A DNA stretch of 34,779 nt, from IMG/VR virus record IMGVR_UViG_2718218308_000002, one strand, 5' to 3'. The notes under the pieces were generated by a model, which had not been told where the DNA came from, made no database searches, and worked only from the letters and a program-made list of their open reading frames with translations. The translations under genes and the position numbers were made by a program. Below are positions 4,669-34,258 of this stretch, in pieces. Source of the stretch: a virus. Taxonomy: Duplodnaviria > Heunggongvirae > Uroviricota > Caudoviricetes. Within the stretch, counting starts at the first letter, position 1; each line of letters opens with the position of its first letter.

Positions 4669-8070
<3,402 letters not shown>

Positions 8071-13808: not shown

Positions 13809-14509
13809 TCACATCTCTGTAACAGAGTGTACGTAATTAACAACTACACACTGCTCCTGAAAATACTGGTCATCCAGTGCAAAGATCACTGCTTCAAATT
13901 CATCGCGCTCAATCAATACCGGATGAGTGGCTAAATATTCATTTATCTCTGTCAGAGATAAAGGCAAAGGCACCCCAGCCATTCCAGCATAACGTCGGGC
14001 ACGGGATATTACCGAATAGGCGTACAACAACTCCTTAAGCACCGGGTCTATTTCTGGTTCCGGTATCGGTGGCAACCTGAGTTTTTCTCGCTTCCATCTT
14101 GCCTTTTCCCCCCTTTCTCCCCCGAACTCCGATAACCACCGCTGGGCAGCTATGGCTTTTTTATCGTATCCTGCTTCTGCTGCTCTTTACCCTGGGCGAT
14201 GCTGGCTGCTTCTGCAAGGATCTGCCAGTACAACTCTGGATTCTGCTTAAGCAGCGCGATCCCTCGTTCTGCCGTATATTCCAGTGCAACCTCAACACCA
14301 TTAACCAGTTCACCAACCCCTTTCCAGTCTTTCAGCAGATAACGAGCGGCATTATCAATGAGTAAATCATCAACAGAATCCACCTCGGAAACCTTTGAAA
14401 TATCAAACTCCTTCGTTCCGACGTGCAAACTGGCATCCATTTTCTCAATGTGGCGACGGATTAATGCATTACGGGAGCGATACTGATCGTTATCGCTGCT
14501 TGCCACCAA
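13809..14509 (-). CDS. G-T: Tail assembly chaperone G-T fusion made by programmed -1 frameshift (about 233 aa)
   Basis: The -1 frame is open from the heptamer A AAA AAG (plus-strand 14156..14162) to the stop at 13809; the T ORF has no ATG of its own (track starts it at TTG). Confidence 0.65.
14150..14509 (-). CDS. G: Tail assembly chaperone G, 119 aa
   Basis: Small acidic protein immediately upstream of the tape measure gene; ends ...DTIKKP with the slippery heptamer in its last codons. Confidence 0.7.
   Translation of the reverse strand: MVASSDNDQYRSRNALIRRHIEKMDASLHVGTKEFDISKVSEVDSVDDLLIDNAARYLLKDWKGVGELVNGVEVALEYTAERGIALLKQNPELYWQILAEAASIAQGKEQQKQDTIKKP
14156..14162 (-). other. Programmed -1 ribosomal frameshift slippery heptamer A_AAA_AAG
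   Basis: Read directly: mRNA AUA AAA AAG CCA UAG, with the -1 frame continuing ...KKAIAAQRWLSEFGG... into T. Confidence 0.65.
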
Positions 14510-14538: not shown

Positions 14539-15596
14539 GGCTTTGTTGAATAAATCGAACTTTTGCTGAGTTGAAGGATCAGATCACGTATCTTCCCGAC
14601 AACGCAGACCGTTCCGTGGCAAAGCAAAAGTTCAAAATCACCAACTGGCCCACCTACAATAAAGCCCTCATCAACCGTGGCTCCATAACTTTCTGGCTGG
14701 ATGAGGAAGCTATTCAGGCCTGGTATGAGTCGGCAACGCCTTCATCACGGGGAAGACCTCAGCGCTATTCTGATCTCGCCATCACCACCGTTCTGGTCAT
14801 TAAACGCGTGTTCAGGTTGACCCTGCGGGCTGCACAGGGTTTTATTGATTCCATTTTTACACTGATGAATGTTCCGTTGCGCTGCCCGGATTACACCAGT
14901 GTCAGCAAGCGCGCAAAGTCGGTTAATGTCAGTTTCAAAACGTTCACCCGGGGTGAAATCGCGCATCTGGTGATTGATTCCACCGGGCTGAAGGTCTTTG
15001 GTGAAGGCGAATGGAAAGTCAAAAAACACGGCAAAGAACGCCGTCGTATATGGCGAAAGTTGCATCTGGCAGTTGACAGCAAAACACATGAAATCATCTG
15101 TGCAGACCTGTCGCTGAACAATGTGACGGACTCAGAAGCCTTCCCGGGTCTTATCCGGCAGACTCACAGAAAAATCAGGGCAGCATCGGCAGACGGCGCT
15201 TACGACACCCGGCTCTGTCACGATGAACTGCGGCGTAAGAAAATCAGCGCGCTTATCCCTCCCCGAAAAGGTGCGGGTTACTGGCCCGGTGAATATGCAG
15301 ACCGTAACCGTGCAGTGGCTAATCAGCGAATGACCGGGAGTAATGCGCGGTGGAAATGGACAACAGATTACAACCGTCGCTCGATAGCGGAAACGGCGAT
15401 GTACCGGGTAAAACAGCTGTTCGGGGGGTTCACTGACGCTGCGTGACTACGATGGTCAGGTTGCGGAGGCTATGGCCCTGGTACGAGCGCTGAACAAAAT
15501 GACGAAAGCAGGTATACCTGAAAGCGTGCGTATTGCCTGAAAACACAACCCGCTACGGGGGAGACTTACCCGAAATCTGATTTATTCAACAAAGCC
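14539..15596 (+). mobile_element. IS903-like insertion sequence (IS5 family), copy 1, 1058 bp, no target-site duplication
   Basis: Terminal inverted repeats GGCTTTGTTGAATAAATC at both ends; flanks GTTTTAAGT and GTTGAAGCC differ; sequence recalled as the Tn903/IS903 ends. Confidence 0.85.
14571..15446 (+). CDS. tnp: IS903-like transposase, 291 aa; C-terminal ~33 codons continue in the +1 frame to 15540
   Basis: DDE-family motifs ([21 protein letters not shown]-like [14 protein letters not shown]); identical protein in all three copies. Confidence 0.85.
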   Translation: MKDQITYLPDNADRSVAKQKFKITNWPTYNKALINRGSITFWLDEEAIQAWYESATPSSRGRPQRYSDLAITTVLVIKRVFRLTLRAAQGFIDSIFTLMNVPLRCPDYTSVSKRAKSVNVSFKTFTRGEIAHLVIDSTGLKVFGEGEWKVKKHGKERRRIWRKLHLAVDSKTHEIICADLSLNNVTDSEAFPGLIRQTHRKIRAASADGAYDTRLCHDELRRKKISALIPPRKGAGYWPGEYADRNRAVANQRMTGSNARWKWTTDYNRRSIAETAMYRVKQLFGGFTDAA

Positions 15597-19158: not shown

Positions 19159-19901
19159 TGATTTCCATCAACATTACACTCTGATTTTTTAATTCATCGA
19201 TCACATCCTCTGGACGGGAATCCTGATCGATAAATTTCAACGCCTGCAACACCCGAACCGCATCAATCTGACGTATATCACCGCCCTGACGCAATGACTG
19301 AACAGCCAGCGCGGAGGATGAGTCAAACACCTGGGCAGATACATCCAGTTCAGTGCGCACATCCACATTGCCACCGCAACTCTCTCCGCTCCATTCCGCC
19401 ATTATCTGGAGAATATTATCGAGGGCATCTTCGAGGGAGTTCGCCATTGTATAAAGCGGCGAGTGTTCCTGCATCCGCTCTTCATTAGTCTGATCAACAG
19501 ATTTGGTGGATGTATTTTCAGCCCGCAGAAGTTTAGCGCCGGCATGACGCATCTGATTTTCCAGCTTCTCAAGTGATGTTTCGCCAGATTCTATCGCTGC
19601 GCCACTATGTTCAACATATTCGAGGCCATTTTTTGTTCTGTCCTCAAAAATCGTAGCCGTGGATGCACCAACCGTCAGTTCTTCATTCCTGTCCAGCCCG
19701 TAGGCCACCAGCAATGGAACGCGGGCAACATGAAGAATATTGTCCTGCTCGCTCTGGCTTTGCCAGTGCTTGATATTCAGCAAGCCAAGATTAAGCAATG
19801 GCGGTGTACCACGCATAAACCCTGTTTTCTTCGTATACAGTGTTACCAGAGGAATATCATCACGGCTGGTATTCCATGACTCATGAGGTAATGACTCCAA
19901 C

Positions 19902-20405
19902 TTATTGATAGTGTTTTATGTTCAGATAATGCCCGATGACTTTGTCATGCAGCTCCACCGATTTTGAGAACGACAGCGACTTCCGTCCCAGCCGTGCCAG
20001 GTGCTGCCTCAGATTCAGGTTATGCCGCTCAATTCGCTGCGTATATCGCTTGCTGATTACGTGCAGCTTTCCCTTCAGGCGGGATTCATACAGCGGCCAG
20101 CCATCCGTCATCCATACCACGACCTCAAAGGCCGACAGCAGGCCCAGAAGACGCTCCAGCGTGGCCAGCGTGCGTTCACCGAATACGTGCGCAACAACCG
20201 TCTTCCGGAGCCTGTCATACGCGTAAAACAGCCAGCGCTGGCGCGATTTAGCCCCGACGTATCCCCACTGTTCGTCCATTTCCGCGCAGACGATGACGTC
20301 ACTGCCCGGCTGTATGCGCGAGGTTACCGACTGCGGCCTGAGTTTTTTAAATGGCGGAAAATCGTGTTGAGGCCAACGCCCATAATGCGGGCGGTTGCCC
20401 GGCAT
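19902..20405 (-). CDS. insB: IS1 InsB frame (made as InsAB' by frameshift), 167 aa
   Basis: Sequence [51 protein letters not shown] recognised as IS1 InsB. Confidence 0.95.
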
Positions 20406-20599
20406 CCAACGCCATTCATGGCCATATCAATGATTTTCTGGTGCGTACCGGGTTGAGAAGCGGTGTAAGTGAACTGCAGTTGCCATGTTTTACGGCAGTG
20501 AGAGCAGAGATAGCGCTGATGTCCGGCGGTGCTTTTGCCGTTACGCACCACCCCGTCAGTAGCTGAACAGGAGGGACAGCTGATAGAAACAGAAGCCAC
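20324..20599 (-). CDS. insA: IS1 InsA, 91 aa
   Basis: Sequence [42 protein letters not shown] recognised as IS1 InsA. Confidence 0.95.
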
Positions 20600-21324
20600 T
20601 GGAGCACCTCAAAAACACCATCATACACTAAATCAGTAAGTTGGCAGCATCACCGACTCATGAAGCATCCAGACAGATTCGCCATTAGTACCTTCGCTGC
20701 GTCGATAAATTTCTACTCGACGGGGCATAATATGGCGGATCTGCTCCACCTTCTTCTGCCCGAAATCATCACCATCAATAATGATGACCTCTTTTATACG
20801 CAAATCAGTGAGAACAACTTTCCCTTTTTCAACTTTCGATTTCCATCCAATAACCTGGCGTGGATTCAGCATCGTAACGTACGGGCGACCACCGGCCGCG
20901 TTTTCATCGGCTTTTGTCCGAATCTCGTTCATATCCGTTCGTGGATAGTCCACCAGCGCATGTGCCACACCATACTGAAATGCGAGACTGAAAAATTGCT
21001 GCGCCCACACATCCAGTCGGCTCCCCTCCATGTCGATATTTTCTGCATATTCCCTGATTTTTTCCGGCGTTTCCTCACTCAATACTGTCGGCTCTGCAAA
21101 TATGCGCCCAATATTTTGTTTGATGCTTTCTTCATACACAGGAAGTAACGTAGCCACAGACAGGCGTTTTTTATAAGCGTCTTCATCTTCATTAGGCCAT
21201 TTGGGGAGATAATTTTCCCCCTGCCTGCGCATTTCAAGCGTACCGCCCATCAATGCGTCGTTAATATCCCACGCCTCCAGCATATCGTTATAGTCGAGGT
21301 TGGGTGTTGATATATCAGCCATAA

Positions 21325-22635
21325 TTAAATCCGAAGTGATGTGACTCTTCCGGTCGGTTTGACAATAGGGAATTGCTTAACGATGAAATAACCTCCGGCA
21401 TCATTCGGGTGATCATTGCCAGATTTTTTATCAGGCTCCCCCTTATCATCCCAGACCTGTTGCTCCAGAGATTCGGCATATACCGGACAACGCTTCACAT
21501 TAACTTTATAGCGACGCTCACCATTGGCATTGCAGAACATTGCATTCATTGAGTTAACGCGATCTTTTACTGGCGGGTTCGAGCTGTTCACCACAACGTT
21601 AAAACCTGCCTGCTTAAGCTGGGCTATATCCGTCGTACTTGCGTTACTTGATTTTCTGGAATCTCCGGAAGCATCTGGATAAATATAAATCTCCCTCACT
21701 TTCCGGTAATCATGCCCGTCATACAGCCAGAAGCGTTCTTTAATGAGGCGGATCATATCCGGCGTATCGTAGGCATTGATGATTTCAGTTACCGCACATG
21801 GAAGCCCCAAACGCAGCACATGGACGATTCCCGCCATCTTTCCAACGTTAAAATCCATCCCAATATAAATCGGCTCCCCTGGCTGCTCCACTTCTTCGCA
21901 ATTATTCAGTTTCCGGTCAAACTGATGGTAAACAGTACCACTTGTCAGGTTAGTAAACCGTCCTAGAAGATAGGCTTTAATCAGCTCTGGAGGGTATGAT
22001 TCAAGAAGTGAAGGAATGTAATCTGCTGGCAGGTTCTTTTCATTATCGAAAGTAGATGCCTGCACCAGACCATACAGTGAGGCCAGCTCTGTTTTTTCAC
22101 GCACGGCTTTAACAAACTGCTCGTAGACAAATTTGAATCCTTCCGGCGTGGTTGTAACGTCAATACCGTTGCGAAGTCCATCAATCTTATAACGCATACG
22201 CGCAATTATCTTGCGCCACGCCGTTCTGGCTTTTTCCTTCGGCAAAATGTCCAGTTCATCCACCAGCGCATTACCAATTTTGAAACCGACGATCGTTTGT
22301 GGCTTCTCCATCGATCTGCAGATAGTGGTTCCCCGATACTGGCGTCCGTAATAAAAGTGAACCTCTTTATTTCCCTCATTAATTTTTACGTTCAATCCCC
22401 AGTCAGCAGCAACTTCTTCCACTGTAGGGTAAAAAATATCGCGAATTTGGGGATACGTTGGCGCAAAATATCCCTGATTTATACCTGGATGCTCCCAAAT
22501 CCCCTTGCATATGCCGCCACACCCAACCCATGTTTTGCCCGAGCCAAAACCAGCAATATAGGCTTTAAATTTATGGGGCATTGAAAGAAATCGCGCCTGA
22601 GGCACATTAAGCGTCGGAGAGATCATCTTCATCAC
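21325..22635 (-). CDS. terL: Terminase large subunit, 436 aa
   Basis: Walker A AGFGSGKT, Walker B-like LVDELD, C-terminal nuclease-like acidic motifs (IGMDFN, YPDASG); position before portal. Confidence 0.85.
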   Translation of the reverse strand: MMKMISPTLNVPQARFLSMPHKFKAYIAGFGSGKTWVGCGGICKGIWEHPGINQGYFAPTYPQIRDIFYPTVEEVAADWGLNVKINEGNKEVHFYYGRQYRGTTICRSMEKPQTIVGFKIGNALVDELDILPKEKARTAWRKIIARMRYKIDGLRNGIDVTTTPEGFKFVYEQFVKAVREKTELASLYGLVQASTFDNEKNLPADYIPSLLESYPPELIKAYLLGRFTNLTSGTVYHQFDRKLNNCEEVEQPGEPIYIGMDFNVGKMAGIVHVLRLGLPCAVTEIINAYDTPDMIRLIKERFWLYDGHDYRKVREIYIYPDASGDSRKSSNASTTDIAQLKQAGFNVVVNSSNPPVKDRVNSMNAMFCNANGERRYKVNVKRCPVYAESLEQQVWDDKGEPDKKSGNDHPNDAGGYFIVKQFPIVKPTGRVTSLRI

Positions 22636-23701
22636 TCCTTACTCTGGCATCAACCACATTAATATTGATCGCCACAGGCTGGGGATGTTCATTATCTTCC
22701 ACCGTTTCGATCTCTTTGCGCAGCTTCTGGTTTTCCATTCTGCGCCGTTCAATTTCCAGTTCCTGTAGCCGTTTATCTGCACATAAAGCCCCGCCAGCAG
22801 AAAACAAACGCAACAATTCACGCCGGGCGGCAGCCTTATCCTCCAGCAGGATCTCAACGCCGAATTTTCCGAATTTTGCCCCTGCATATAATTGCCGCGC
22901 ATCCCCATCAAGCAGAGTGGTATCAGCCATATAAAGCTGTCCCGTTCCCTCACCGCAGCACTTCGGGCAGTCCGGATTGGGTATGGCGTTATCAACAAAG
23001 CCGAGGCCTCCATATTCCGGTTCGGATTTGCCATCTCTGGAAGCCTGCGCCGCTGCCTTGTCGAATTCTGCTATATCGCGCCACTGGTAGAGATGATTCT
23101 CGCCCCAGCAATAACGGCAGTTAACACGGCGAAATTGTGCAAGCTGATTGGGGTCGGCCAGGACAATAGCCATCAACTGACTCACTAGTAAATCCAGGTC
23201 TGCGGTATAGCGTTTCTGGTACTGATTGCGGAAGTAGCTGATAGCGCGAAAAACCCTGGCATTTCTAAGCATACGACTGGCGTTGCTGTTAGCTGTCGCA
23301 CCTTGCCCCTCATAACCGGCTAGTCGGTACGCCTCTGTCGGCTTTTTACCCTGAGCAACAAGCATCGCAAACTTAGCCTGCTGGTCAGAAATGCCGAATT
23401 CATCGGGACAGAACGAAAATTCCTCCGCGTCGCCCTCATTCAGGCCCGCATCGAATACTGGCTTTTTTTCCTGAGATTTTTCGTTCCGCTTTTGTGCAGT
23501 CTGCGCAGATTTTTTCTGCGCACTTTTTTGCGCAGTTTTGCACATTTCTGTCTGCGCATTTTTCGGAGTTTTTTTGATGTAACGACGGGCTGTTGCGTAA
23601 TTCAGTCCCCTTGCTTCACACCATGCCACCGGAGATATACCGGAGCGGGTGTATTCAGCAATATACTCCTGCTGCAACGCCCCCCAGTCCGGTCTGCTCA
23701 T
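22607..23701 (-). CDS. terS: Putative terminase small subunit, 364 aa
   Basis: N-terminal HTH-like region, Lys/Gln-rich linker, Cys cluster; directly upstream of and overlapping terL. Confidence 0.55.
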   Translation of the reverse strand: MSRPDWGALQQEYIAEYTRSGISPVAWCEARGLNYATARRYIKKTPKNAQTEMCKTAQKSAQKKSAQTAQKRNEKSQEKKPVFDAGLNEGDAEEFSFCPDEFGISDQQAKFAMLVAQGKKPTEAYRLAGYEGQGATANSNASRMLRNARVFRAISYFRNQYQKRYTADLDLLVSQLMAIVLADPNQLAQFRRVNCRYCWGENHLYQWRDIAEFDKAAAQASRDGKSEPEYGGLGFVDNAIPNPDCPKCCGEGTGQLYMADTTLLDGDARQLYAGAKFGKFGVEILLEDKAAARRELLRLFSAGGALCADKRLQELEIERRRMENQKLRKEIETVEDNEHPQPVAININVVDARVRSDEDDLSDA

Positions 23702-23704
23702 CAG

Positions 23705-23956
23705 TTAGTCCTGATTTTTATCCACCCTGAGTAGTGCGCGCAGAGCAAAGGCATCCCCTTTTCTGGCAAGCTTAAACAATGCCGCTCGTAACTCGGCTTC
23801 ACCTTTCGCTCTGCCCTTACGGATGGCCGCATAAAAATCTGTCATTGCTTCCCGATTTTCTTTCAGTCGGTTCAGATCAACATCCAGAACGTCAGCGATT
23901 TGTTGTGCAGTCATCCGGCACGCTGCCAGAGACTCGACTTTCGAATACGGAATCAT
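23705..23956 (-). CDS. Small HTH-like hypothetical protein, 83 aa, translationally coupled to terS
   Basis: Predicted helix-turn-helix (MTAQQIADVLDVDLNRL); stop overlaps the terS start region. Confidence 0.4.
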   Translation of the reverse strand: MIPYSKVESLAACRMTAQQIADVLDVDLNRLKENREAMTDFYAAIRKGRAKGEAELRAALFKLARKGDAFALRALLRVDKNQD

Positions 23957-24845
23957 TTGTCACCCCCATTGATATGCAGGGTGTCTTCTTCCTGTATTTT
24001 TCGTGAAGGATTTTTACTGCAGCGTTGTTCCAGGTGACCTGATGGTGAATGCGTTTATGGCTGGCACCCATCAGTGAGATTTTTACGCACGACGGCGCAT
24101 ACATGACGGAGTAAAAACTTTTAACGTAGGTTCCGGAATCCAGATACAGCTCGGTCATTCCGCCGCTGTTTTTCTGCGTCTGTTTCTGCCCTAACTGGAC
24201 AGCACCGATCGTCATAAACAATTCACCACAGCGACCGAGATTCGTGTACGTATTCACATCCTCGTTAATGCGCCCCATGAATGAGAACGGTCGATCAACC
24301 GAACAGATAAAGCTGTTCATTGCCTTGCGTTTCACCCACGAAGCATGGCCGCCATTGTCACCAAGAAAATCCCCGCCCTGCGACATAGCGATGGAAAGAG
24401 CAGGTATTGATTCGTAGTACGCCAGCATTTCAGAAAGGATCGCATCCAGTTTCCTTATCGGAAAATAGGCCTGGTCATAGTTGCGATCCACCCGAAACTG
24501 GAACTCGTGATAATCATCATCGAGCTGAATGAAGTATTTACACCCGACCAGTTTTGCCAGGTCGAAACAGGCATTACGGGCGTAAAAAATTGAGCGGCGG
24601 TCACAGAAATTATCGGCTTCGTCAAAACGACTGGCGATATCGGCTTTGGAAAACACCAGCACCTGTTCACCAAATTCAGCCATGTACTGATTCCGTGTCT
24701 TATCTTCATCATCAACAACGATAAAAATTTTCCCGGTATAGCCAGCACGACGCAACGTCCGGTAAGTCAGAACTTTGTCCGGTCGCCCGTGAGTCAGAAT
24801 AAAGGCGCAAAAATCATCACGCATATTCCTCCTCCTCACCACCAT
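23892..24845 (-). CDS. Uncharacterised protein with GT-A-like (Rossmann, DxD) features, 317 aa
   Basis: Hydrophobic strand CAFILTHGR, then KIFIVVDDED, then YFIQLDDDY at spacings resembling GT-A glycosyltransferases such as SpsA; no TM segments; adjacent to the ParB-like gene. Confidence 0.5.
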   Translation of the reverse strand: MVVRRRNMRDDFCAFILTHGRPDKVLTYRTLRRAGYTGKIFIVVDDEDKTRNQYMAEFGEQVLVFSKADIASRFDEADNFCDRRSIFYARNACFDLAKLVGCKYFIQLDDDYHEFQFRVDRNYDQAYFPIRKLDAILSEMLAYYESIPALSIAMSQGGDFLGDNGGHASWVKRKAMNSFICSVDRPFSFMGRINEDVNTYTNLGRCGELFMTIGAVQLGQKQTQKNSGGMTELYLDSGTYVKSFYSVMYAPSCVKISLMGASHKRIHHQVTWNNAAVKILHEKYRKKTPCISMGVTNDSVFESRVSGSVPDDCTTNR

Positions 24846-25608
24846 GCATGATCTCCACCATGCGCTGCGTCATCCGGACAAATCCATTTTCAATAGCCTG
24901 CTGATAATCAATGATCACCAGCGCCGACTCCTCGAAAAAACACTGAATTTCAGAGGGGGCGTGAGCGTAATAGTCCGCAATTCTGCTGAAATTAAACACC
25001 GTGTGACGTTCTGCCGCACACAGGAGGAATTTCTCAATATCAGGCTCAAGGGACGCCGAACGTATCCGGCTGATCAGCTCCTGAGTTTTCGTATCGTCGT
25101 ACAGTTCACTGATATCCGGTTTACCGCCCGACGGCTCATAAACAGGCGTATCAATTTTCGTCGTATACGGCTCCTCCTCATTTCCTGTACCGGGCAAAAC
25201 ATCCGTCAACAGTTCATCAATTTCTGTCGGGATGAAGCCTGTCAGGGAGACATCAAAATCAGCATTGATTAGGTCCGACAGCTCCATCCGCAACAGATCT
25301 TCATCCCAGCCAGCATTCATCGGCAGGCGATTATCTGCCAGGCGGTACGCCTTTTTCTGCTCATCCGTCAGGCCAGACAGAACAATGACCGGAACAGAAT
25401 CCATTTTGAGCATTTCAGCCGCCATAACACGACCGTGACCCGCAATAATTTCGCCCTTTTCGTCAATCAGCACCGGATTAGTCCAGCCGAATTGCTTAAT
25501 ACTTTCTACCAGTTGTGCCACCTGCTCAGGGCTGTGCGTCCTGGCGTTGTGCGCATACGGTGACAATTCTTGTAATGGGCGATAGACTATCTTTAATTTC
25601 TCGCTCAT
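24817..25608 (-). CDS. ParB/Srx-like nuclease-domain protein, 263 aa
   Basis: ParB N-terminal motif VLIDEKGEIIAGHGRVMAA; acidic C-terminus. Confidence 0.75.
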   Translation of the reverse strand: MSEKLKIVYRPLQELSPYAHNARTHSPEQVAQLVESIKQFGWTNPVLIDEKGEIIAGHGRVMAAEMLKMDSVPVIVLSGLTDEQKKAYRLADNRLPMNAGWDEDLLRMELSDLINADFDVSLTGFIPTEIDELLTDVLPGTGNEEEPYTTKIDTPVYEPSGGKPDISELYDDTKTQELISRIRSASLEPDIEKFLLCAAERHTVFNFSRIADYYAHAPSEIQCFFEESALVIIDYQQAIENGFVRMTQRMVEIMHGGEEEEYA

Positions 25609-25624
25609 ACAGCCTTGCTTTATG

Positions 25625-25659
25625 AATAAAACGCACCCCAGCAGCCAGTGCTACTGGGG
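25625..25659 (-). terminator. Terminator-like hairpin downstream of trkG
   Basis: Minus strand CCCCAG...CTGGGG stem followed by TGCGTTTTATTC. Confidence 0.45.
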
Positions 25660-25745
25660 ACGGAGGGGTTGCTGGTAAAGTTAGGTATTGGATCAATGAG
25701 TGAGTCAACATAATATTAAACTCACAATTATAAATCAGCCATATA

Positions 25746-27203
25746 TTAGGAGCGCCAAAAAAAACCTGAAAACAATATAATAACAGGATAAATTTCAAGG
25801 CGACCAAGAATCATAGCTATGCACATTAAACATTTTGCAATGTCATTAAGCACTCCGAATGACGATGCAGTAGCCCCAAAACCTAATCCCATATTATTAA
25901 TACATGCAGCCACTGTTGCAAATGATGTAAGAAAATCATATCCCATACCATTTAACACCAGTATAAAAAACACCGTGAAGAGAGTATAAAGAAAAAAGAA
26001 ACTCCATACAGACCTCATTACACGATCTGTAACTATCTTCCCTCCTACATTTACACTCAACAACGCTCTGGGATGAGAAAGCTGATTTATCTCGTGTTTG
26101 CTTTGTTTGAAAAGTATAAGAAATCGAAGTGACTTAATTCCACCACAAGTTGAACCTATACATCCCCCAAAGAAACTTGACAACAGCAAAAACACTATCG
26201 TGTGCGTGGGCCAACTTGCATAATCCTGCGTAGCTAAACCATTATCAGTGAGCATGGAGCTGGCAAGAAAAAACGAATGAATAAAACTTCCATGCAAGTC
26301 ATACATACCTATATGCCAGACCTGGAAAGAGGTAACAATGATCACCCCTAAGGCTATTAACAGAAAGAAACGAAGTTCAATATCTCTGATTAAAGGTTTT
26401 ATCGTTTTCCTGCTAATAACAATATACCAAAGAGTGAAGTTGAAAGCCGATAGCAGGGAAAAAGAACCAGCCACCAGCTCAACCAAATAGTTATTAAAAT
26501 ATCCGATACTCTCGCTATGAGTTGAGAAACCACCAAGCGAAACTGTGGAAATCCCGTGACAAATAGCATCAAACAAAGGCATTCCTGCAAGTCTATAACA
26601 GACAATACAAGCAATACCTAATAAAGAATAAGTTATCCACAGTGTCCGTGACGTATCGGCCAGGCGGGGAGTGAGTTTGTCATCCTTAAATGGCCCCGGC
26701 ATTTCTGACTGATAAAGCTTTGCACCACCAATACCCAATAATGGCAATACAGCAACCGCCAGAACAATAACTCCTAAACCACCTATAAAATTTAACTGTG
26801 ACCGATAGTACAAATATGCCCGAGGTAATGAACTAACATCATCAATTACAGTTGCTCCTGTTGTTGTTATTCCAGAAACCCCTTCAAACAGAGCATCAAT
26901 GAACGTTAAATTAAGTTCTGAGTCAATCCATAAAGGGAATGCACTAATAACAGAAAACAAAATCCAAAACATTACAATTATAATAAACCCATCACGGGTA
27001 CGTAATTGAATGCCAGATTTCTTAGTTGTATACCACGCTCCGCCACCAATGCAAAAAAATATAACGAAAGTTATAAAGAAAACGAACAGGCTTTTTTCTT
27101 TATAAAACAATGCTACAACCATTGGTGGCAACATTGAAAGACTATAGAGCCAAACCAGGAACCCACACATATGAGTAACAACTCTTACATGAGATGTATT
27201 CAT
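25746..27203 (-). CDS. trkG: TrkH/TrkG-family potassium uptake protein, about 485 aa from MNTSHV; ORF track extends it to 27221
   Basis: Polytopic membrane protein with TrkH-type motifs (GVSGITTTGATV, LGGFSTH); AT-rich relative to flanking phage genes; prophage-borne like Rac trkG of K-12 (from memory). Confidence 0.9.
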   Translation of the reverse strand: MNTSHVRVVTHMCGFLVWLYSLSMLPPMVVALFYKEKSLFVFFITFVIFFCIGGGAWYTTKKSGIQLRTRDGFIIIVMFWILFSVISAFPLWIDSELNLTFIDALFEGVSGITTTGATVIDDVSSLPRAYLYYRSQLNFIGGLGVIVLAVAVLPLLGIGGAKLYQSEMPGPFKDDKLTPRLADTSRTLWITYSLLGIACIVCYRLAGMPLFDAICHGISTVSLGGFSTHSESIGYFNNYLVELVAGSFSLLSAFNFTLWYIVISRKTIKPLIRDIELRFFLLIALGVIIVTSFQVWHIGMYDLHGSFIHSFFLASSMLTDNGLATQDYASWPTHTIVFLLLSSFFGGCIGSTCGGIKSLRFLILFKQSKHEINQLSHPRALLSVNVGGKIVTDRVMRSVWSFFFLYTLFTVFFILVLNGMGYDFLTSFATVAACINNMGLGFGATASSFGVLNDIAKCLMCIAMILGRLEIYPVIILFSGFFWRS

Positions 27204-27340
27204 ATCTAAATATTCTTTCAATTATAACCACCTTGCTGCAATATTATGATTATACTGTATAAAATTTAACTCCTCTTAGATCTTACTTCACTGTTCCTTA
27301 TGAAACAATCATCAAAATGAATCATATTGTAGTTAAGATT

Positions 27341-28186: not shown

Positions 28187-29244
28187 GGCTTTGTTGAATA
28201 AATCGAACTTTTGCTGAGTTGAAGGATCAGATCACGTATCTTCCCGACAACGCAGACCGTTCCGTGGCAAAGCAAAAGTTCAAAATCACCAACTGGCCCA
28301 CCTACAATAAAGCCCTCATCAACCGTGGCTCCATAACTTTCTGGCTGGATGAGGAAGCTATTCAGGCCTGGTATGAGTCGGCAACGCCTTCATCACGGGG
28401 AAGACCTCAGCGCTATTCTGATCTCGCCATCACCACCGTTCTGGTCATTAAACGCGTGTTCAGGTTGACCCTGCGGGCTGCACAGGGTTTTATTGATTCC
28501 ATTTTTACACTGATGAATGTTCCGTTGCGCTGCCCGGATTACACCAGTGTCAGCAAGCGCGCAAAGTCGGTTAATGTCAGTTTCAAAACGTTCACCCGGG
28601 GTGAAATCGCGCATCTGGTGATTGATTCCACCGGGCTGAAGGTCTTTGGTGAAGGCGAATGGAAAGTCAAAAAACACGGCAAAGAACGCCGTCGTATATG
28701 GCGAAAGTTGCATCTGGCAGTTGACAGCAAAACACATGAAATCATCTGTGCAGACCTGTCGCTGAACAATGTGACGGACTCAGAAGCCTTCCCGGGTCTT
28801 ATCCGGCAGACTCACAGAAAAATCAGGGCAGCATCGGCAGACGGCGCTTACGACACCCGGCTCTGTCACGATGAACTGCGGCGTAAGAAAATCAGCGCGC
28901 TTATCCCTCCCCGAAAAGGTGCGGGTTACTGGCCCGGTGAATATGCAGACCGTAACCGTGCAGTGGCTAATCAGCGAATGACCGGGAGTAATGCGCGGTG
29001 GAAATGGACAACAGATTACAACCGTCGCTCGATAGCGGAAACGGCGATGTACCGGGTAAAACAGCTGTTCGGGGGGTTCACTGACGCTGCGTGACTACGA
29101 TGGTCAGGTTGCGGAGGCTATGGCCCTGGTACGAGCGCTGAACAAAATGACGAAAGCAGGTATACCTGAAAGCGTGCGTATTGCCTGAAAACACAACCCG
29201 CTACGGGGGAGACTTACCCGAAATCTGATTTATTCAACAAAGCC
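28187..29244 (+). mobile_element. IS903-like copy 2, 1058 bp, with 9-bp target-site duplication GGTATGTAG
   Basis: Same terminal inverted repeats as copy 1; identical 9-mers at 28178..28186 and 29245..29253; inserted within the endolysin gene. Confidence 0.9.
28219..29094 (+). CDS. tnp: IS903-like transposase (copy 2), 291 aa, same frameshifted C-terminus
   Basis: Protein identical to copies 1 and 3. Confidence 0.85.
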
Positions 29245-29832: not shown

Positions 29833-30228
29833 CTAACCTCGCATGTCAAAGCCAGATTTCTGAAAATCTCTGTAGACTTCCGGATTGTTGAAGGCCGGAA
29901 ATTTGGCTTTATGAGCTGCGGACTTTATCGCTTCGCAATAGGCTTTATCACCGTTACTGGTAGATATTTTTAACGCCGTGCCATCCTGAGAGAATTCCAT
30001 ATGCAACCTGCATTTTTTCCCTTTCCAGTTATGCGGCTCATCAAGTTTGGCATTAATTGCAGCTCTGATTCCCCGCGCTTGCGCCCCCCATTCATCCTGA
30101 TCATCCCAGCGTCCTGAACTGCAACTACCTGTAGCAGTAGTTTTGTGGCAATCTGAAGGGTGTAAAGGTGTGCATCCCGCAACAAAACCGACCCAAAAAG
30201 TCAACATAACGATTTTCTTTAATCCCAC
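29833..30228 (-). CDS. TolA C-terminal-domain-like lipoprotein 1, 131 aa
   Basis: Signal peptide with lipobox FVAGC; C-terminal region with two Cys and PAFNNPEVYRDFQ aligns with the TolA domain III tail; paralog of the next gene. Confidence 0.7.
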   Translation of the reverse strand: MGLKKIVMLTFWVGFVAGCTPLHPSDCHKTTATGSCSSGRWDDQDEWGAQARGIRAAINAKLDEPHNWKGKKCRLHMEFSQDGTALKISTSNGDKAYCEAIKSAAHKAKFPAFNNPEVYRDFQKSGFDMRG

Positions 30229-30378: not shown

Positions 30379-30807
30379 TCAGGGTTTAAAATCCAGCACC
30401 CCATTTTGAAATACTTTATATACTTCCGGCGAAGGGGGGGCAGGTATATCAGCATTCTTTATCGCATTCATCGCTTCACGACATAAATCGAGGTCTCCAC
30501 TTTCTCTTTTAACCTCCAGTAGAAGGCCATTCGGGGCCATATGCATTCTCAGTGTACACTCTTTTCCTGAATACTTACTCGCATCCCCGAACTGTTTTTC
30601 GATGGCGCTCTTGATTTGATGGGCATACAGACGGATATCCTCACTAACATCAGAAGTACGTTCAGATGAACTCACATACTGTGTCTCTATTGCTTTATCG
30701 GAGTAATATGATGTACGGTCATGATAATTTGTCGATACAGCATCAGTGCACCCGATAATAATCCCACTAATAATCAACGTAAGAATTGATGCGCTACGAA
30801 AACCCAT
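30379..30807 (-). CDS. TolA C-terminal-domain-like lipoprotein 2, 142 aa
   Basis: Lipobox IIGC; C-terminus YAHQIKSAIEKQFGDASKYSGKECTLRMHMAPNGLLLEVKRESGDLDLCREAMNAIKNADIPAPPSPEVYKVFQNGVLDFKP closely parallels the E. coli TolA C-terminus ending ...LDFKP (from memory). Confidence 0.75.
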   Translation of the reverse strand: MGFRSASILTLIISGIIIGCTDAVSTNYHDRTSYYSDKAIETQYVSSSERTSDVSEDIRLYAHQIKSAIEKQFGDASKYSGKECTLRMHMAPNGLLLEVKRESGDLDLCREAMNAIKNADIPAPPSPEVYKVFQNGVLDFKP

Positions 30808-33200: not shown

Positions 33201-34258
33201 GGCTTTGTTGAATAAATCAGATTTCGGGTAAGTCTCCCCCGTAGCGGGTTGTGTTTTCAGGCAATACGCACGCTTTCAGGTATACCTGCTTTCGTCATTT
33301 TGTTCAGCGCTCGTACCAGGGCCATAGCCTCCGCAACCTGACCATCGTAGTCACGCAGCGTCAGTGAACCCCCCGAACAGCTGTTTTACCCGGTACATCG
33401 CCGTTTCCGCTATCGAGCGACGGTTGTAATCTGTTGTCCATTTCCACCGCGCATTACTCCCGGTCATTCGCTGATTAGCCACTGCACGGTTACGGTCTGC
33501 ATATTCACCGGGCCAGTAACCCGCACCTTTTCGGGGAGGGATAAGCGCGCTGATTTTCTTACGCCGCAGTTCATCGTGACAGAGCCGGGTGTCGTAAGCG
33601 CCGTCTGCCGATGCTGCCCTGATTTTTCTGTGAGTCTGCCGGATAAGACCCGGGAAGGCTTCTGAGTCCGTCACATTGTTCAGCGACAGGTCTGCACAGA
33701 TGATTTCATGTGTTTTGCTGTCAACTGCCAGATGCAACTTTCGCCATATACGACGGCGTTCTTTGCCGTGTTTTTTGACTTTCCATTCGCCTTCACCAAA
33801 GACCTTCAGCCCGGTGGAATCAATCACCAGATGCGCGATTTCACCCCGGGTGAACGTTTTGAAACTGACATTAACCGACTTTGCGCGCTTGCTGACACTG
33901 GTGTAATCCGGGCAGCGCAACGGAACATTCATCAGTGTAAAAATGGAATCAATAAAACCCTGTGCAGCCCGCAGGGTCAACCTGAACACGCGTTTAATGA
34001 CCAGAACGGTGGTGATGGCGAGATCAGAATAGCGCTGAGGTCTTCCCCGTGATGAAGGCGTTGCCGACTCATACCAGGCCTGAATAGCTTCCTCATCCAG
34101 CCAGAAAGTTATGGAGCCACGGTTGATGAGGGCTTTATTGTAGGTGGGCCAGTTGGTGATTTTGAACTTTTGCTTTGCCACGGAACGGTCTGCGTTGTCG
34201 GGAAGATACGTGATCTGATCCTTCAACTCAGCAAAAGTTCGATTTATTCAACAAAGCC
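33201..34258 (-). mobile_element. IS903-like copy 3 (inverted), 1058 bp, no target-site duplication
   Basis: Same terminal inverted repeats; flanks TTGATTTGA and CGTGGGAGG differ; joins the nin region to the 3' part of the integrase. Confidence 0.85.
33351..34226 (-). CDS. tnp: IS903-like transposase (copy 3), 291 aa, same frameshifted C-terminus
   Basis: Protein identical to copies 1 and 2. Confidence 0.85.
   Translation of the reverse strand: MKDQITYLPDNADRSVAKQKFKITNWPTYNKALINRGSITFWLDEEAIQAWYESATPSSRGRPQRYSDLAITTVLVIKRVFRLTLRAAQGFIDSIFTLMNVPLRCPDYTSVSKRAKSVNVSFKTFTRGEIAHLVIDSTGLKVFGEGEWKVKKHGKERRRIWRKLHLAVDSKTHEIICADLSLNNVTDSEAFPGLIRQTHRKIRAASADGAYDTRLCHDELRRKKISALIPPRKGAGYWPGEYADRNRAVANQRMTGSNARWKWTTDYNRRSIAETAMYRVKQLFGGFTDAA

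Follow-up and report, generated by a model that had tools for sequence, protein, structure and literature searches.

A two-gene module made up of a ParB-like protein and a glycosyltransferase (GT) was analyzed in the tailed-virus record IMGVR_UViG_2718218308_000002, a stretch of 34,779 nucleotides (here called the window) that is a Rac-type lambdoid prophage from the ttcA integration site of Escherichia coli. The pair is present in viruses of at least five bacterial phyla and of haloarchaea and in about one in six complete E. coli genomes. Judged from sequence, the invariant partner of this GT clade is an unannotated, acidic C-terminal domain (C-domain) of the ParB-like protein and not the ParB domain. 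Glycosylation-type DNA modification is the best-supported functional reading, because the GT family holds the enzymes of phages T2 and T6 as well as metavirome enzymes acting on 5-hydroxymethylcytosine (5hmC), because the N-terminal domain (N-domain) of the partner is like the ParB domains of methyltransferases (MTases), and because there is a precedent in ParB-activated thymine dioxygenases. We tentatively favor the view that the pair is an autonomous module of tailed viruses that would serve as a ParB-assisted, post-replicative DNA glycosyltransferase.

An earlier reading of this DNA, made without database searches (the sequence-only reading), had described a 263-amino-acid (aa) ParB/Srx-like protein and a GT-A-like neighbor just upstream of the terminase genes. 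Both assignments were borne out, and the two genes do lie upstream of the terminase, from which they are separated by an 83-aa open reading frame (ORF). Beyond that reading, the C-domain is recognized here as the conserved partner, the pair spans bacterial and archaeal viruses, the prophage is defective, and the source of a hydroxymethyl-pyrimidine acceptor is a problem.

The glycosyltransferase and its ParB-like partner

The start codon of the GT is most likely that of M8 (24824), giving a protein of 310 aa, because homologues begin with MRDDF and RefSeq annotates the same start. The protein matches Pfam family PF20691, "TET-associated glycosyltransferase" (TAGT), with an E value of 8.4e-35 (121 bits; cut-off, 27.5) and phrog_842 with an E value of 1e-103. 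In the AlphaFold2 (AF2) model the N-terminal half has a pLDDT of >90 and the C-terminal half is of low confidence, shallow alignments being the likely cause. Structure prediction gave a GT-A fold, as had been supposed from motif spacing, and not a non-GT fold: the PDB neighbors of the model in Foldseek are all GT-A glycosyltransferases (SunS, ColGalT1, SpsA, glycogenin, and GnT-I), although these matches are weak (E of 8e-4 or worse) and reflect the GT-A fold. The best BFVD neighbors are viral proteins with a TAGT domain (best E, 4.5e-19).

The acidic motifs VVDDED and QLDDDY singled out by the sequence-only reading are both where it had placed them and coincide with conserved acidic motifs in two alignments, A1 of close homologues and A3 of cross-phylum GTs from viruses of E. 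coli, Yersinia, Sphingomicrobium, Lactobacillus, Nocardia, Vibrio, Porphyromonas, and Haloarcula. D38 and D41 of VVDDED are invariant in A1, with D41 nearly invariant in A3, and the DDD of QLDDDY is invariant in both. The residues invariant in A3 are R14, D68, A82-R83, D102-D103-D104, K167, D189, G222/T224, Y227, K235, P244, and H260-H261; the last ~25 aa form an E. coli-specific tail. Because the catalytic residues are invariant, catalysis by the GT appears to be under selection. The sequence-only reading had noted no membrane segments in the GT, and neither protein has a 19-residue window above 1.6 on the Kyte-Doolittle scale, compared with 74 in the TrkG control. The GT is basic, with a median isoelectric point (pI) of 8.8 and a charge of +7 in residues 226 to 285. 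We interpret it as a soluble TAGT-family enzyme of the GT-A type that is mostly basic and has its catalytic apparatus intact. PADLOC and NCBIfam searches returned no defense or antidefense assignment for it. The name "beta-glucosyl-HMC-alpha-glucosyltransferase" derived from PHROG 842 should not be taken literally, because no genes for a dCMP hydroxymethylase or an alpha-GT are annotated and because identity to the T4-like homologues is only 23 to 26% (E of about 1e-4).

The partner, as the sequence-only reading had noted, carries an N-terminal ParB motif, GEIIAGHGRVMAA, at residues 52 to 64. The protein matches Pfam ParB_N (PF02195; 28.9 bits against a threshold of 26.3), phrog_620 "ParB-like partition protein" (E=8.5e-91), and, in a PDB sequence-profile search, solved ParB/Spo0J/Noc sequences (E of about 1e-9). 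AF2 is confident for residues 1 to 135, whereas the pLDDT falls below 50 for residues 137 to 170 and confidence is low in the C-terminal half, where shallow alignments are again the likely cause. Foldseek placed the modeled N-domain with ParB CTPase-domain structures (E of about 2e-6), its neighbors being ParB, Noc, PadC, and KorB along with sulfiredoxin and a serine kinase. Box II reads GHGR (residues 57 to 60), the catalytic Glu of GERR being replaced, and a box I-like NAR and a box III-like DN are present. The N-domain is far closer to ParB domains fused to MTases (phrog_498, E=1e-50; PADLOC MTase_II, E=2e-38) than to the models of partition ParBs, for which E values range from 1e-6 to 1e-10 (Pfam ParB_N, 1e-6; TIGR00180, 1e-9). 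The partner is predicted to be a ParB/Srx-fold protein that is not a partition ParB: a helix-turn-helix (HTH) was not detected, box II differs, and the annotated neighborhoods of the pair show no adjacent ParA gene.

A linker, predicted to be disordered, carries the motif YTxKIxxPxYEPxGxKP, in which Y148, T149, K151, P155, Y157, P159, and P164 are invariant in the partner alignment A2; the motif is conserved across phyla, with the first Tyr being Phe in the Porphyromonas phage. The C-domain that follows is ~110 aa long, helical, and very acidic, with the motifs FLxxAAxRH, IAEYYAH, SALVIID, and AIENGF. Both partner domains have a pI of about 4.5, and the net charge of the protein, about -25, is complementary to that of the basic GT. 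The C-domain matched no Pfam family in a scan to E<=10; it has no solved relative, as the PDB profile matches all fell on the N-domain part; and the PHROG search returned only its own family, phrog_620. A full-library search gave a family of 1189 clusters at 50% identity. Among the 150 matches listed, the domain is at the C terminus in nearly all, usually after a ParB N-domain and sometimes alone, and no fusion of C-domain and GT was found among them, Pfam scans of longer family members included.

The sequence-only reading had looked to co-occurrence in other prophages, and linkage was complete in both directions. The loci compared are the best matches of each search; some overlap and some are redundant, so that they do not form random samples. 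The ParB gene precedes the GT in all 70 close viral loci. When these were combined with 80 loci from a cross-phylum profile and six loci of cultured phages, all of the resulting 156 loci had a C-domain gene directly before the GT, and 46 clusters with GT identity below 85% are among them. In 147 of these loci the C-domain follows a ParB N-domain within one protein, and in four, where enough sequence upstream is available, it stands alone; C-only partners occur, for example, in Vibrio phage pv27 and in loci L126 and L130. Conversely, all 80 loci retrieved by the C-domain have the GT downstream, and in 77 it is adjacent. Pairwise identities across 40 nonredundant loci co-vary between GT and C-domain (Pearson, 0.76; Spearman, 0.57) but hardly between GT and N-domain (0.26 and 0.08) or between N- and C-domain (0.30 and 0.11). 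From this linkage and co-variation, we conclude that the C-domain and the GT are the core of the system, with the ParB N-domain as a frequently exchanged accessory. In two loci a class I S-adenosylmethionine methyltransferase-like gene (Methyltransf_23, E=1e-5) lies between the C-only partner gene and the GT (L126, 7244-8008; L138, 2242-3090). Locus L136 encodes a ParB_N-N6_N4 DNA methylase fusion (5924-7099) two genes upstream of the pair.

At the junction of the two genes, ATGCGTGA, the start codon of the GT overlaps the stop codon of the partner, preceded by GAGGAGGAGGAA. This is a classic coupled junction, and the GT gene is predicted to be translationally coupled to the partner gene. The overlapping arrangement is also found in jlb1, c5, HHTV-2, and NTR1 and in Porphyromonas phages. 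Both genes are under purifying selection: the ratio of nonsynonymous to synonymous substitution rates (dN/dS) against diverged enterobacterial alleles is 0.09 to 0.16 for the partner and 0.06 to 0.08 for the GT, with saturation against the most diverged alleles. Because of this selection, and because the two are linked in every related locus examined, the pairing is not due to chance.

Table 1. Coordinates of the gene pair, its domains and motifs, and the adjoining packaging genes in the window
Feature	Coordinates	Strand	Evidence
Partner gene (RefSeq ynaK), ParB/Srx family N-terminal domain-containing protein, 263 aa	24817-25608	-	ORF, Pfam, PHROG, RefSeq
ParB/Srx NTP-binding-type N-domain, residues 1-135	25204-25608	-	AF2, Foldseek, PDB sequence profile
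Linear motif YTxKIxxPxYEPxGxKP, residues 148-164, in predicted disordered linker	25117-25167	-	Alignment, pLDDT
Linker and acidic C-terminal domain, residues 140-263	24820-25191	-	Library search, linkage, co-variation
Partner/GT junction, 8-nt gene overlap	24817-24824	-	Sequence
GT ORF, maximal extent, 317 aa	23892-24845	-	ORF list
Predicted GT-A glycosyltransferase, TAGT family, 310 aa	23892-24824	-	Pfam, PHROG, AF2 and Foldseek, alignments, dN/dS
VVDDED, first acidic motif of nucleotide-binding half	24702-24719	-	Sequence and alignments
QLDDDY, DxD-type metal/nucleotide-sugar motif, D102-D104	24510-24527	-	Sequence and alignments
83-aa ORF (PGAP start 23914), like HTH portion of small terminase subunits	23705-23956	-	phrog_309, E=2.6e-22
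Terminase small subunit (TerS)	22607-23701	-	Pfam Terminase_2, PHROGs
Terminase large subunit (TerL)	21325-22635	-	Pfam Terminase_6N/6C, PHROGs

Distribution, genomic position, and host prophage

The GT clade, with identities of 27 to 47% and the same gene order, includes the Lactobacillus phages phi jlb1 and c5 and their relatives, Nocardia phage NTR1, a Porphyromonas gingivalis phage, haloarchaeal virus HHTV-2, and 191-kb Vibrio phages. Identity is as high as 40 to 47% between viruses of Gram-negative, Gram-positive, and archaeal hosts, and such conservation across hosts fits universal substrates such as DNA and common nucleotide sugars. The 191-kb Vibrio phages (pv27) have a C-only partner, with the pair situated in a cluster of replication genes. 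Two further genes of pv27, for a PurZ-like "2-aminooxy adenylosuccinate synthetase" and for a metal-dependent phosphohydrolase (L242, 30930-32042 and 39401-39928; 80930-82042 and 89401-89928 of the record), suggest a 2-aminoadenine (Z) genome.

A Pfam census of the neighbors in 46 diverse loci covered 147 upstream and 115 downstream proteins, with the 25 commonest families listed. Upstream, the genes vary widely, with 69 families of which none occurs in more than two proteins, and downstream lie terminases (Terminase_6N, Terminase_3, lambda GpA, TerL_ATPase, and several types of TerS) and portals. The pair is thus usually found at the start of the packaging operon, irrespective of the type of packaging machinery that comes after it. 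In phage c5 the ParB gene begins 90 nt from cos, and in phi jlb1 the 1.4 kb directly upstream of the ParB gene (L075, 11350-12746) holds no annotated gene or convincing ORF. The census also contained one UDP-glucose/GDP-mannose dehydrogenase upstream and one cytidylyltransferase-like protein downstream, two neighbors that may hint at the sugar donor, and one ParM/actin-like match among the 115 downstream genes.

In the window, the minus-strand order is lysis genes, trkG, the 263-aa ParB/Srx gene, the GT ORF, the 83-aa ORF, TerS, and TerL. The 83-aa ORF is conserved only in enterobacterial loci and overlaps the nonconserved 25-aa tail of the E. coli GT; it is probably no part of the universal module. 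Many E. coli chromosomes are 100% identical to the window across the region, and at least 80% of positions 23600 to 25800 is present in 867 of 5,426 complete E. coli genomes. The K-12 gene ydaY was considered as a truncated version of the GT and rejected, because RefSeq puts ydaY elsewhere, at 14150-14509. Of ynaK, K-12 has just a truncated copy.

The prophage is defective because of insertion sequences (IS), and the ParB/GT pair is intact. By comparison with intact relatives, a 768-bp IS1 with a 9-bp target duplication splits the portal gene at 19887-20654. Of the three IS5-family copies, at 14571-15446 (+), 28219-29094 (+), and 33351-34226 (-), one interrupts the lysozyme gene and another replaces the early region beside a truncated integrase, as in E. 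coli strain C9. The potassium transporter gene trkG (25746-27221), a moron, separates the lysis cassette from the ParB gene, and a terminator-like hairpin is found after it at 25636-25659, directly before the ParB start. Between a Q-like gene (DUF1133) and the lysis genes are two genes, at 29833-30228 and 30379-30807, whose strain C9 counterparts carry TolA-like annotations (TolA C-terminal domain protein and TolA).

Proposed function and the acceptor problem

In the mechanism that we propose, the C-domain, perhaps with the linker motif YTxKIxxPxYEPxG, would bind the GT and dimerize or activate it, the acidic C-domain and linker fitting the basic enzyme. The ParB domain would be a nucleoside triphosphate (NTP)-gated module holding the enzyme on duplex DNA, as has been proposed for the ParB-dependent thymine dioxygenases. 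With a nucleotide sugar as donor, the GT would attach a sugar to the phage DNA after replication, immediately before the terminase packages it, and DNA so modified may be shielded from host nucleases. The proposal is made by analogy with two precedents, ParB176/5mYOX176 and the ParB-DNA methyltransferase fusions. Phage thymine dioxygenases require HTH-less ParB-like proteins for activation on double-stranded DNA (dsDNA) (PMC13229309), and DNA-linked hydroxyls are the acceptors of the characterized TAGT-family enzymes and of related GT-A enzymes from phages (PMC13216743; PMC13390438; bioRxiv 10.1101/2023.12.21.572611). DNA as the target is further supported by the MTase-like ParB domain, by the ParB-N6_N4_MTase fusion that in L136 occupies the same late-operon position, and by the replication-gene setting in pv27. 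Literature searches on the pair, ynaK, and HHTV-2 modification found no functional study.

Several observations weigh against a DNA glycosyltransferase. The genomes of c5 (31.8 kb, complete), phi jlb1 (38.3 kb, complete), an intact Rac-type prophage, and the Porphyromonas phage have no dioxygenase, hydroxymethylase, or TET-linked C5-methyltransferase annotated, and the larger unannotated proteins of c5 and jlb1 gave no Pfam match to such acceptor-making enzymes. No acceptor-making family recurs near the pair among the 25 commonest families of the 46-locus census, in which single occurrences are possible. We know of no GT that glycosylates unmodified DNA, and in all cases of phage DNA glycosylation known to us a pyrimidine must first be given a hydroxyl. 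The partner, which is very acidic, lacks a recognizable DNA-binding domain, with no HTH family detected in its C-terminal half, and the homologues from Nocardia and Porphyromonas have lost the box II Arg. In Lactobacillus delbrueckii phages the GT is split into two frameshifted pieces (phiLdb, Ld17, and LL-Ku) or survives as a remnant of 45 aa joined to the ParB gene (Ld25A), and because of these losses the pair appears dispensable for laboratory growth. Lastly, GREB1, a relative of the TAGT family, has been reported to glycosylate protein, by O-GlcNAcylation (PMC7968844).

The GT thus lacks the contextual hallmark of TAGTs, an association with a TET/JBP dioxygenase or a pyrimidine hydroxymethylase. 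In pv27, read for hydroxymethyl-base genes over 0 to 100 kb and 167 to 184 kb of 191 kb, only a thymidylate synthase beside dihydrofolate reductase came to light (L241, 25388-26251). The window is uninformative on this point, its own early region having been lost to IS5. On the favored reading, because the phages encode no hydroxymethyl-pyrimidine pathway, the acceptor of the pair must differ from that of every characterized TAGT member, all of which use hydroxyls linked to hydroxymethyl-pyrimidines or a sugar already on one (PMC13216743; bioRxiv 10.1101/2023.12.21.572611). Solitary TAGTs, in 288 of 753 GT-encoding phages (PMC13216743), and GT contigs without 5mYOX or ThyS, about 65% (Pyle et al., bioRxiv 10.1101/2023.12.21.572611), have been noted in the literature and were not analyzed there. 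A two-gene module without an acceptor step would either hide a new acceptor-making route or perform a new DNA reaction. The latter would be a self-sufficient system in which a ParB-tethered GT-A enzyme sugars an ordinary base or the backbone of DNA that has not been prehydroxymethylated, with the C-domain as an adaptor or cocatalytic subunit. We consider it doubtful; if true, it would be the first known enzyme to glycosylate canonical DNA.

The former possibility, a conventional TAGT role with a hydroxymethyl-pyrimidine supplied by an unrecognized phage or host enzyme or by the C-domain itself, would bring the pair into line with the acceptor use of the characterized family. Thousands of 5mYOX-like sequences are missed by the TET/JBP Pfam model (PMC13229309), ORF25 of c5 (208 aa) and other hypothetical proteins have no assignable function, and invariant R-H, E, D, and Y residues of the C-domain could be catalytic. 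We nonetheless regard this role as quite unlikely, since no candidate recurs beside the pair in the 46 loci, few unassigned proteins of fitting size are left in the small complete genomes, and a helical, acidic domain of ~110 aa is unlike the double-stranded beta-helix of oxygenases or the thymidylate synthase fold; hosts ranging from E. coli to Haloarcula make a shared host enzyme unlikely. Glycosylation of a protein would dispose of the missing acceptor altogether. The target could be the conserved Tyr/Thr linker motif of the partner, as with glycogenin or glycocins, or a packaging or virion protein from the same operon, and a hydroxyl-bearing conserved motif does lie in the disordered linker of an obligate partner, terminase and portal genes adjoin the pair, GREB1 offers a protein-modifying relative, and the PDB neighbors include the peptide S-glycosyltransferases SunS/ThuS, collagen galactosyltransferase, and the self-glucosylating glycogenin. 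These structural matches are weak, however, and just reflect the GT-A fold; the first Tyr of the motif is not kept in the Porphyromonas phage; and the downstream terminases and portals are of unrelated types while the GT is 40 to 47% identical across them. With the pair of pv27 in a replication cluster and the kinship of the N-domain to MTase-fused ParBs pointing to DNA, protein glycosylation is unlikely.

ParB proteins load at specific DNA sites (ParB-parS), and the place of the pair directly upstream of TerS/TerL, together with the 90-nt distance from cos in c5, could mean that the ParB-like protein marks or organizes DNA near pac or cos for the terminase, with the GT in a supporting or regulatory role and no bulk modification of the DNA. 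Such a packaging accessory is improbable given that the downstream terminase families are mutually unrelated, that viable L. delbrueckii phages have lost the module or carry it in decayed form, that it sits in a replication cluster in pv27, and that a highly acidic partner without an HTH is joined to a GT with invariant catalytic residues. Dispensability would suit a counterdefense module acting on a small molecule, either a nucleotide signal or a cofactor, with the ParB/Srx domain as an NTP-using enzyme like the serine kinases or sulfiredoxin. The fold does include true kinases, SerK, SbnI, and Srx are among the structural and sequence neighbors, and here too the missing acceptor ceases to be a problem; against it, the N-domain is optional and poorly coupled to the GT, nothing beyond the MTase-type ParB domain matched PADLOC or other defense or antidefense models, and the context of the TAGT family is DNA glycosylation, leaving a small-molecule target improbable to a similar degree. 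Prophages encode soluble GT-A enzymes that modify wall polymers; one of them, TarP, is structurally near the phage GT-A DNA glycosyltransferases (bioRxiv 10.1101/2023.12.21.572611). A TarP- or Gtr-type modification of the host envelope, for superinfection exclusion or serotype conversion, is nevertheless very improbable for an enzyme with no membrane segments or Gtr-type partners, an obligate ParB-like partner, and a location in the late packaging operon instead of a lysogenic-conversion position. In addition, the c5 record annotates no integrase or repressor, and the enzyme is conserved in viruses whose hosts have unrelated envelopes, haloarchaea included.

A ParB-assisted DNA glycosyltransferase, the reading that we favor, would extend ParB-like activation of DNA-modifying enzymes from dioxygenases to glycosyltransferases, and the enzyme-specific half of such ParBs would be identified with a large family of domains that lack annotation (about 1,200 clusters at 50% identity). 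If the target is not DNA, the pair would represent a new use of a DNA-glycosyltransferase family. With a module native to E. coli and natural loss variants in Lactobacillus phages, the question is directly testable. Modifications of this kind matter for the evasion of restriction and CRISPR, for host range in phage therapy, and as enzymatic tools for DNA labeling.

Comparison with known systems

PF20691 includes the gentiobiosyl-forming enzyme of T2 and T6, which has been modeled as a GT-A enzyme and placed as sister to GT2 (PMC13216743). With this beta-glucosyl-HMC-alpha-glucosyltransferase the window GT has in common PF20691 and PHROG 842, the GT-A fold, motifs of the R...DDD...ED type, solubility, and a phage origin (PMC13216743). 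The T-even enzymes add a second glucose to alpha-glucosyl-5hmC in phages that make hydroxymethylcytosine and have an alpha-GT or beta-GT, whereas the window pair comes with no hydroxymethylcytosine pathway and no first GT and has an obligate ParB-like partner, a need unreported for the T-even enzymes. Related GT-A enzymes from metaviromes attach sugar to 5hmC in DNA and are similar to the base-J glucosyltransferase (bioRxiv 10.1101/2023.12.21.572611). These enzymes and the base-J glucosyltransferase of trypanosomes share with the window GT the GT-A fold, the pattern of active-site motifs, and an action after replication that in the window GT is presumed. In contrast to the metavirome GTs, which cluster with a C5-methyltransferase plus 5mYOX/TET or with a ThyS-type hydroxymethylase, the pair has none of these recurring beside it or in the four genomes named above. 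Prophage GTs of the Gtr or TarP type have membrane flippase or GtrA-B partners or a wall-polymer substrate, unlike the window GT, with no transmembrane segments and with ParB and terminase neighbors.

Among ParB proteins, the partition ParBs that act as CTPase clamps (Spo0J, Noc, and KorB) share the ParB/Srx fold with the window N-domain, in which residues like those of box II and box III are present. The window partner differs from them in having no detected HTH or parS-binding domain, no ParA annotated alongside, a strongly negative net charge (-25), and GHGR in place of GERR. A closer likeness is found in 5mYOX176/ParB176 (O'Toole et al., PNAS 2026, PMC13229309), in which the ParB has an N-terminal NTP-binding domain (NBD), a disordered linker, and a C-terminal domain (CTD) and lacks an HTH, a layout like that predicted for the window partner with its NTP-binding-type N-domain. 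ParB176 is required for the activity of 5mYOX176 on dsDNA, and the predicted complex puts the enzyme between NBD and CTD (PMC13229309). In the 5mYOX-ParB systems the ParB adjoins its cognate DNA-modifying enzyme, and terminases and GTs are frequent neighbors (PMC13229309); in architecture, obligate adjacency, and co-variation of the C-domain, the window pair likewise presents an HTH-less ParB beside a cognate enzyme. That enzyme is a predicted GT with no dioxygenase, whereas 5mYOX176 is an iron- and 2-oxoglutarate-dependent dioxygenase, and for the ParB-dependent dioxygenases the linkage is with kinases and amino-acid transferases, not with GTs (PMC13229309). Nearest to the window N-domain are the fusions of a ParB domain with a DNA methyltransferase in phages and prophages (PHROG 498; PADLOC MTase_II; Kaljevic et al. 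2025, PMC12704722). In these the ParB domain is covalently joined to the catalytic domain, whereas in the window it is joined to an adaptor-like C-domain and the GT is a separate product of a gene with a coupled junction. By analogy, the pair would work most like the ParB-activated dioxygenases and the ParB-methyltransferase fusions, with another catalytic partner and a dedicated adaptor domain.

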